NCBI RefSeq assembly: GCF_003018115.1
Contig: NZ_CP027457.1
DNA: 64,000 nucleotides
From: Escherichia coli
GTDB lineage: Bacteria; Pseudomonadota; Gammaproteobacteria; Enterobacterales; Enterobacteriaceae
Strand: one strand, 5' to 3'
Shown here: positions 26,544-26,922 of the stretch, piece by piece
Layout of the letters: every line of letters begins with the position of its first letter
Numbering within the stretch: position 1 is the stretch's first letter
Notes under the pieces: model-generated
Seen by the model: only the letters and a program-made list of their open reading frames with translations
What the model was told of the DNA's origin: nothing
Databases searched by the model: none
Program-made: the position numbers and the translations under genes

Positions 26544-26884
26544 GTTCTTCTAGCGCAATAACCCTGAACGCCGGGCTTCGGTTAGTAAGGGTTTTTTTAT
26601 GCCCGCGATAAATAAACTCTCTATTCCACCATCATTATTCTCAGCGGTTGCAAGGCTTGAACGGTAAGAACAAGCAAACCCGACCACCATTTTGCTGTTC
26701 ATAGCCACTTGCTGGAAGTTAGCCGACCTCACTCATACTCACCGTTCAAAGCGTGCCCCCGTTTTACCCCTGCACATTTGTGAACGCCAGCAGAGTTTTT
26801 TATGCGATTGCAGATATGGAAAGCGGCTCGGAGAGAAAAGCAAAAGATGGAAAAGTTACAAAAAAAAATCGCGAGATACATCGC

Positions 26885-26919
26885 ATAAAACAACGCCACC
26901 CGAAGGTGGCGTGCTTTTA
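26885..26919. terminator. bidirectional terminator downstream of ytfP
   Basis: Hairpin CGCCACCCGAAGGTGGCG flanked by an A-tract on one side and a T-tract on the other. Confidence 0.6.
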
Positions 26920-26922
26920 TTA

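Follow-up and report, generated by a model that had tools for sequence, protein, structure and literature searches.

The spacer between ppa and ytfP in an Escherichia coli chromosome: probable deletion scar of a chpSB toxin-antitoxin module

Has the interval between ppa and ytfP in this Escherichia coli chromosome always been free of the chpSB toxin-antitoxin module, or did it once carry the module and lose it? chpSB (chpBIK) is a type II toxin-antitoxin module of the MazEF family, and its toxin ChpB is an endoribonuclease of the PemK/MazF type. The first-pass annotation of the DNA analysed here, a stretch of 64,000 nucleotides that we call the window, had stated that K-12 carries chpS and chpB between ytfP and ppa, had pointed out that the pair is missing here and had taken the 379-bp interval as the empty-site form of a variable toxin-antitoxin locus. 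The genes that frame the interval are listed below.

26013..26543, plus strand: ppa (inorganic diphosphatase), a 176-aa open reading frame (ORF) annotated as ppa in all matching E. coli records; left flank
26923..27264, minus strand: ytfP (gamma-glutamylcyclotransferase family), recognised by its 113-aa ORF and by annotation; right flank
27267..31046, minus strand: tamB, beyond ytfP

The ppa-ytfP spacer, 26544..26922, is exactly 379 bp long and the list of ORFs places no chpS or chpB frame within it, in agreement with the first reading. The statement about K-12 was also correct: in a chromosome of the K-12 lineage (L001), an 886-bp spacer separates ppa from ytfP and contains chpB and chpS, and the chpSB sequence of MG1655 is identical to that of this record. 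Thus, the reference pair does not map elsewhere, and the 379-bp spacer is not that of K-12. When the K-12 proteins were searched against the 64-kb window with tblastn, ChpS gave no significant match and ChpB gave a single weak one, covering residues 15-42 with 50% identity over 28 aa (26727..26644, E 0.002). Strictly speaking, and contrary to the first reading, ORFs of at least 60 aa do exist: alternative starts yield a 60-aa GTG frame inside the spacer (26550..26732, minus strand) together with an 82-aa TTG frame and a 77-aa GTG frame, both of which start within the spacer and run antisense into ytfP. However, none of the spacer ORFs (60, 82, 77, 56 and 28 aa) keeps its frame and length in the other alleles, five alleles being compared, and they were rejected as genes; the spacer is thus non-coding in substance. 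RefSeq annotates nothing in the remnant form of the spacer. Elsewhere in the window, ytfQ (24738..25703, minus strand) measures 966 nt, compared with 957 nt in other strains, and its signal peptide region (25650-25690) contains an extra 9-bp tandem copy, GTCTCTGCA, giving VVSAVSAVSAAMSS in place of VVSAVSAAMSS.

Terminator hairpins had been reported at both ends of the spacer, and both are present:

26560..26598, plus strand: predicted intrinsic terminator of ppa, a stem AACCCU/AGGGUU around a small inner hairpin, followed by U7
26893..26912, both strands: predicted two-way terminator hairpin ending ytfP, ACGCCACC-CGAA-GGTGGCGT

The hairpin on the ytfP side is strong, with a stem of 8 pairs (6 G-C), T-rich tails on both strands, free energies of -19.9 and -16.9 kcal/mol and a z-score of about -4.9 on both strands. 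It is conserved across Enterobacteriaceae, the GCCACC...GGTGGC columns being invariant in 17 sequences from 7 genera. The hairpin on the ppa side (26560-26593; centroid -12.4 kcal/mol) was overlooked by a simple terminator scan and folds no better than shuffles of its 62-nt stretch (z -0.11), but it is conserved in every allele aligned, whether remnant or chpSB. Both consist of a hairpin and a U tract, as intrinsic terminators do, and both can be regarded as predicted terminators. A pattern scan for sigma-70-like promoters found none in 26400-27000, and an Rfam scan of 26300-27100 with permissive E-values revealed no known RNA family in the spacer. A match to the S15 leader inside ppa was discarded as sub-threshold (16.8 bits versus a cut-off of 39.5). 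The working parts of the spacer would then be its two predicted terminators, the DNA between them being without sign of function and presumably neither transcribed nor under selection.

What is the DNA between the two terminators? Local blastn alignment resolved the spacer into three blocks that are collinear with the K-12 spacer. The first block (26544-26631 versus K-12 spacer 1-90, 93% identity) comprises the ppa terminator plus the final ten bases of chpB; the second (26626-26750 versus 286-412) corresponds to chpB codons ~7-49, with 72% identity over 127 nt and an E-value of 8e-19; and the third (26760-26912 versus 725-876, 86%) contains the sequence upstream of chpS and the ytfP terminator. 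The lengths add up, since 886 - 201 - 312 + 9 gives about 379. A global MAFFT alignment of the window with K-12 had misplaced the remnant against chpS, and the homology was resolved by local blastn and by a multi-sequence alignment of chpB. The part of the spacer next to ppa can be described as follows:

26621..26750, minus strand: chpB remnant (pseudogene fragment), in which the stop codon (TAG) and last codons are joined to codons ~7-48
26626..26631, no strand: junction of deletion 1, with one copy of CCACCA (sense TGGTGG), of which K-12 has two, 201 bp apart

The overlap of the first two blastn blocks reflects this repeat, as positions 83-88 of the query match both 85-90 and 286-291 of the K-12 spacer. 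Deletion 1 is 201 bp long and in frame, and it removed about 67 codons (ChpB residues ~49-115). The remnant has the orientation of ytfP (minus strand) and, like K-12 chpB, with which it is collinear, is flanked by ppa and ytfP, so that it combines significant homology to a parent gene with the orthologous position, which is what characterises a pseudogene fragment. It contains in-frame TGA stops and a 1-bp frameshift. Compared with K-12 chpB it has 34 differences, distributed 12/9/13 over codon positions 1/2/3; the corresponding figures for intact chpB against K-12 are 5/4/21 in Enterobacter and 5/4/25 in Lelliottia. Such an even spread over codon positions, together with a rate similar to that of synonymous sites, is the pattern of a pseudogene, although the sample is small (~125 sites). 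Judged by its reading frame, the retained chpB fragment is dead and has no intact toxin frame.

The part of the spacer next to ytfP begins at a second junction:

26751..26759, no strand: junction of deletion 2, with 9 nt (GCGTGCCCC) of uncertain origin replacing 312 bp of K-12
26760..26892, minus strand: chpS-upstream leftover, corresponding to K-12 spacer 725-~857, 86% identical to K-12

Deletion 2 removed chpB codons 1-6, the whole of chpS, its Shine-Dalgarno site and a palindrome that precedes them. In K-12 (L001 1725-1760) this palindrome is perfect, GTTATAC-TTT-GTATAAC, is followed by GGAGG and immediately precedes the chpS start. Twelve chpSB loci from 6 genera share it (besides K-12, L009-L013, L035, L044, L053, L071, L075 and L088) while the remaining upstream region diverges, and it is absent from all remnant alleles. 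The Shine-Dalgarno site, likewise conserved in six genera, is deleted here. The palindrome probably serves as the operator of ChpS/ChpB and overlaps the -10 element. The leftover itself is 100% identical in some strains that carry chpSB (L002). The chpS-upstream segment has weak homology in the chpSB loci of Lelliottia, Enterobacter and Pseudocitrobacter, and none in the short empty spacers of other genera.

Taken against the four features by which a chpSB module is recognised, the window lacks three, namely a toxin ORF (~116 aa), a chpS antitoxin gene (83 aa) upstream of and overlapping it, and the promoter/operator, and it retains the fourth, the position between ytfP and ppa with transcription in the direction of ytfP. 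K-12 ChpB matches the Pfam family PemK_toxin (PF02452), whereas the window has no such intact toxin. Without an antitoxin gene, a promoter/operator or an intact toxin frame, no toxin-antitoxin activity is possible; on this gene content, the spacer is a remnant of the chpSB family rather than a member of it and is predicted to be unable to act as a toxin-antitoxin system.

How common is this remnant? A stretch with 100% identity to the window over 26000-27300 occurs in the O169:H41 strain 2014EL-1345-2. We determined the distribution of the remnant in 5,426 complete E. coli genomes. The chpSB module (at least 80% of K-12 chpB plus chpS) was present in 3,098 genomes (57%) and the 379-bp remnant spacer (at least 80% of its length) in 2,320 (43%), so the presence/absence polymorphism that the term "variable toxin-antitoxin locus" implied is real. 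A further gene, esiB, was found in 188 genomes (3.5%), and esiB strains carry the remnant spacer as well, the additional gene lying next to the ytfP terminator; the genomes with neither chpSB nor esiB thus amount to about 39% (43% less 3.5%). About eight genomes have other configurations. Among them is E. coli N50, an isolate from cerebrospinal fluid (CSF; L089 560-19000), with a rare fourth configuration in which ppa is followed by a bgl-like PTS operon, with a gene for a beta-glucoside PTS IIABC protein, a GH1 glycosidase gene and licT, and then by a P2-like prophage (integrase, Cox, replication endonuclease, portal).

An allele with a single deletion was not found, coverage of the query falling below 80% in only 2 of 3,100 chpSB-matching genomes, one of which (HH45) was examined. 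HH45 (L005 2393-2904) has the remnant junctions together with a patch of ~100 bp that is 100% K-12-like chpB and, at the place of chpS, a very G+C-rich insertion of 131 bp, and PGAP calls a partial PemK/MazF pseudogene there. This allele may be a mosaic produced by gene conversion, or else an artefact of assembly, and it was left out as evidence. Exchange between the two forms is visible in other strains. The 163 bp proximal to ytfP (26760-26922, compared with L001, L002 and L003) exist in two types, that of the window and that of K-12, which are about 86% identical. A mosaic strain (L002) has chpSB and, next to it, these 163 bp in a form 100% identical to the window. As each type accompanies chpSB in some strains and the remnant in others, there must be recombination breakpoints inside the spacer.

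The same two junctions are found in the strain of the window, in B2 alleles (L006, L007), in esiB strains (L003, L008), in a divergent Escherichia lineage (L012) and in the E. albertii type strain (L014). That B2 E. coli, this divergent lineage and E. albertii share both remnant and junctions indicates that the loss is old. In a neighbour-joining tree all remnant alleles cluster on a single long branch that joins the Escherichia chpB group. The E. coli and E. albertii remnants diverge by 0.13, a value equal to the local third-codon-position divergence (0.13 for ppa, 0.12 for ytfP), and this fits neutral drift. The distance between remnant and chpB is 0.27 raw and about 0.34 corrected, which exceeds the depth of the local E. 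coli-E. albertii split several-fold and again makes the loss old; as a rough estimate from ~125 aligned sites, it appears to predate that split. A three-point estimate assigns about 0.32 to the remnant branch versus 0-0.02 to the intact one, which is more lopsided than neutral versus constrained rates predict, though again with only ~125 sites. Intact chpSB occupies the same site in E. whittamii and in three other divergent Escherichia lineages, and also in Lelliottia, Enterobacter asburiae, Pseudocitrobacter, Kluyvera and one further Enterobacteriaceae isolate.

Other Enterobacteriaceae also display what a site without any cargo looks like. In most of them the ytfP-ppa gap measures only about 100-170 bp, cargo-free examples being found in Citrobacter, Klebsiella, Enterobacter, Kluyvera, Raoultella and S. 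enterica diarizonae, and the terminator segments are all that they share with the window, which therefore does not have the appearance of a never-occupied site; the extra ~250 bp of its spacer are, by their homology, debris of the module. The same gap accommodates varied cargo elsewhere: a TonB-dependent receptor with a beta-propeller protein in Citrobacter, Hcp-fusion proteins with a small downstream ORF in S. enterica arizonae and C. youngae, methyl-accepting chemotaxis proteins in Pluralibacter and Silvania, and gene pairs without a Pfam match in Enterobacter (cargo-bearing gaps in L015, L020, L021, L037, L045, L055, L059 and L083, from about 4340 to 6000-7900). Citrobacter sedlakii (L031 4430-4562) has an independent chpB remnant, in this case of the C-terminal residues ~63-107, in a gap of 347 bp, so chpSB has decayed at this place more than once. 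The variety of cargo and the C. sedlakii remnant point to the ytfP-ppa gap as a long-standing hot spot for variable DNA.

Putting this evidence together, we consider it very probable that the 379-bp spacer, which represents the allele with neither chpBS nor esiB, is the scar of an old loss of chpSB by deletion and not a never-occupied site. The term "empty-site form" thus keeps its value insofar as the pair is absent and the locus is variable; it fails insofar as the spacer is that of K-12 after two deletions and still holds parts of chpB and of the chpS-upstream sequence, ~130 nt each. According to the proposed model, an ancestral chpS-chpB module stood at the position and in the orientation of K-12 and was inactivated by two deletions, presumably associated with microhomology. 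One, of 201 bp and in frame, lies between the TGGTGG repeats, with loss of ChpB residues ~49-115, and the other, of 312 bp, eliminated the chpB start, chpS, the ribosome-binding site and the palindrome (the likely operator and -10 element). The mechanism of these events is what we infer, as are their order and independence, since no single-deletion allele was found. Both leftovers, the one from chpB and the one from upstream of chpS, have since presumably drifted without selection, the spacer would now only terminate ppa and ytfP transcription, and homologous recombination in the flanks would move both remnant and intact module between backgrounds.

Could the remnant have come from another module? 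A separate, divergent chpSB-like module might have been inserted and decayed, the intact chpSB of E. coli being a later replacement, so that the two forms would not be allelic descendants of one ancestor. Such a history would account for the divergence of 27% raw between remnant and intact chpB, compared with 2-5% among intact Escherichia alleles, and for the unusual divergence of the spacer flanks of the two haplotypes (86-93% identity). It is also in keeping with a site that is a hot spot for cargo and holds chpSB in six genera, and with ST131, a B2 strain whose chpSB is 99.8% identical to that of K-12, evidence of recent transfer between backgrounds. Nevertheless, the remnant is nearer to Escherichia chpB (p-distance 0.27) than to the chpB of Enterobacter, Lelliottia, Kluyvera and Pseudocitrobacter (0.40-0.54), the even codon-position pattern implies that most of the divergence arose after inactivation, and collinearity, with 86-100% identity, extends to the flanking module sequence. 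We therefore regard a separate origin as decidedly unlikely.

A second possibility is that the leftover DNA has been put to a new use, as a small RNA, as a regulatory 3' element of ppa or ytfP, or through the 60-aa ORF, which would explain its persistence in 43% of the genomes and in E. albertii. Sequence with the same junctions does persist across Escherichia species, and the 60-aa ORF is open, and longer, in L012 and in E. albertii. On the other hand, a 1-nt insertion breaks this ORF in the B2 alleles and the repertoire of ORFs differs in every allele, the divergence of the remnant from E. albertii equals that of local synonymous sites, and the scans described above returned no promoter-like site and no Rfam family. 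A new use is therefore highly improbable.

Finally, that the 379 bp are the ancestral state and that K-12-type strains gained chpSB by insertion is hardly credible: such an account would suit a spacer without toxin-antitoxin ORFs or RefSeq annotation and a module that looks mobile, being found at the same site in several genera, but it leaves unexplained the 127 nt that align inside chpB, for which the E-value of 8e-19 and the collinearity make a chance match implausible, the further ~130 nt that match sequence accompanying chpSB only, the truly empty spacers of 100-170 bp that share only both terminators, and a difference from K-12 that consists of two separate internal deletions instead of one clean insertion.

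If the spacer is a deletion scar, why do both forms coexist? One can imagine that intact chpSB and the remnant are an ancient trans-species polymorphism that is actively maintained in Escherichia. This idea derives from the occurrence of both forms in E. coli at about 57:43, of the remnant in E. albertii and in L012, and of the intact module in E. whittamii and the three divergent lineages, together with a remnant branch several times deeper than the local split. We think it rather unlikely. Were it true, it would mean balancing selection, for instance a condition-dependent benefit of ChpB against phages or plasmids offset by a cost, and the locus would be a natural system in which to study the purpose of chromosomal toxin-antitoxin modules.

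Three forms of this locus have been described before. In a survey of 47 complete E. coli genomes, the ytfP-ppa locus contained chpBS in 53%, esiB in 15% and neither in 32% (Pastorello et al., mBio 2013, PMC3735183, Fig. 1), so that the polymorphism was already known in 2013. The window corresponds to its form in which "both esiB and chpBS" are absent, 32% of 47 genomes there versus about 39% of 5,426 here. In the passage on this locus the account is one of gene presence and absence, and no chpB fragment is mentioned in the "neither" and esiB forms (PMC3735183); here, the "neither" form is a remnant left by two deletions, and the esiB form is built on the same remnant. In the literature searched, which was covered in part, we found no earlier description of a chpB remnant at ytfP-ppa. 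Thus, the strain difference at ytfP-ppa is already known, and the unannotated chpB fragment is a minor refinement.

The refinement has some practical consequences. When pan-genome and toxin-antitoxin surveys enter this locus as "absent" or "empty", a former module goes unrecorded, which bears on counts of gain versus loss of chromosomal toxin-antitoxin modules. The remnant is also a convenient neutral haplotype marker, and the 57:43 split, together with the sharing across Escherichia species, gives one more natural example of the dispensability of chpSB. In itself, and as far as its sequence tells, the chpB remnant is ordinary and non-functional.

How does this locus compare with known systems? 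One close counterpart is the chpSB module of K-12, with which the remnant of the window shares position, orientation and flanks. Decay of chromosomal toxin-antitoxin modules is a known pattern. The classic case is ccdO157, which lies between folA and apaH in E. coli and which Mine and colleagues reportedly described in Genetics in 2009. Like chpSB, it is a chromosomal type II toxin-antitoxin system with a constant intergenic location; some strains retain it intact and in others it is degraded or missing, which is consistent with weak or no selection for its retention. The two differ in family, CcdAB there and the MazEF type here, and in the history of their decay: whereas ccdO157 has many independent and recent inactivations, the chpB remnant is one ancient haplotype that extends across phylogroups and species.
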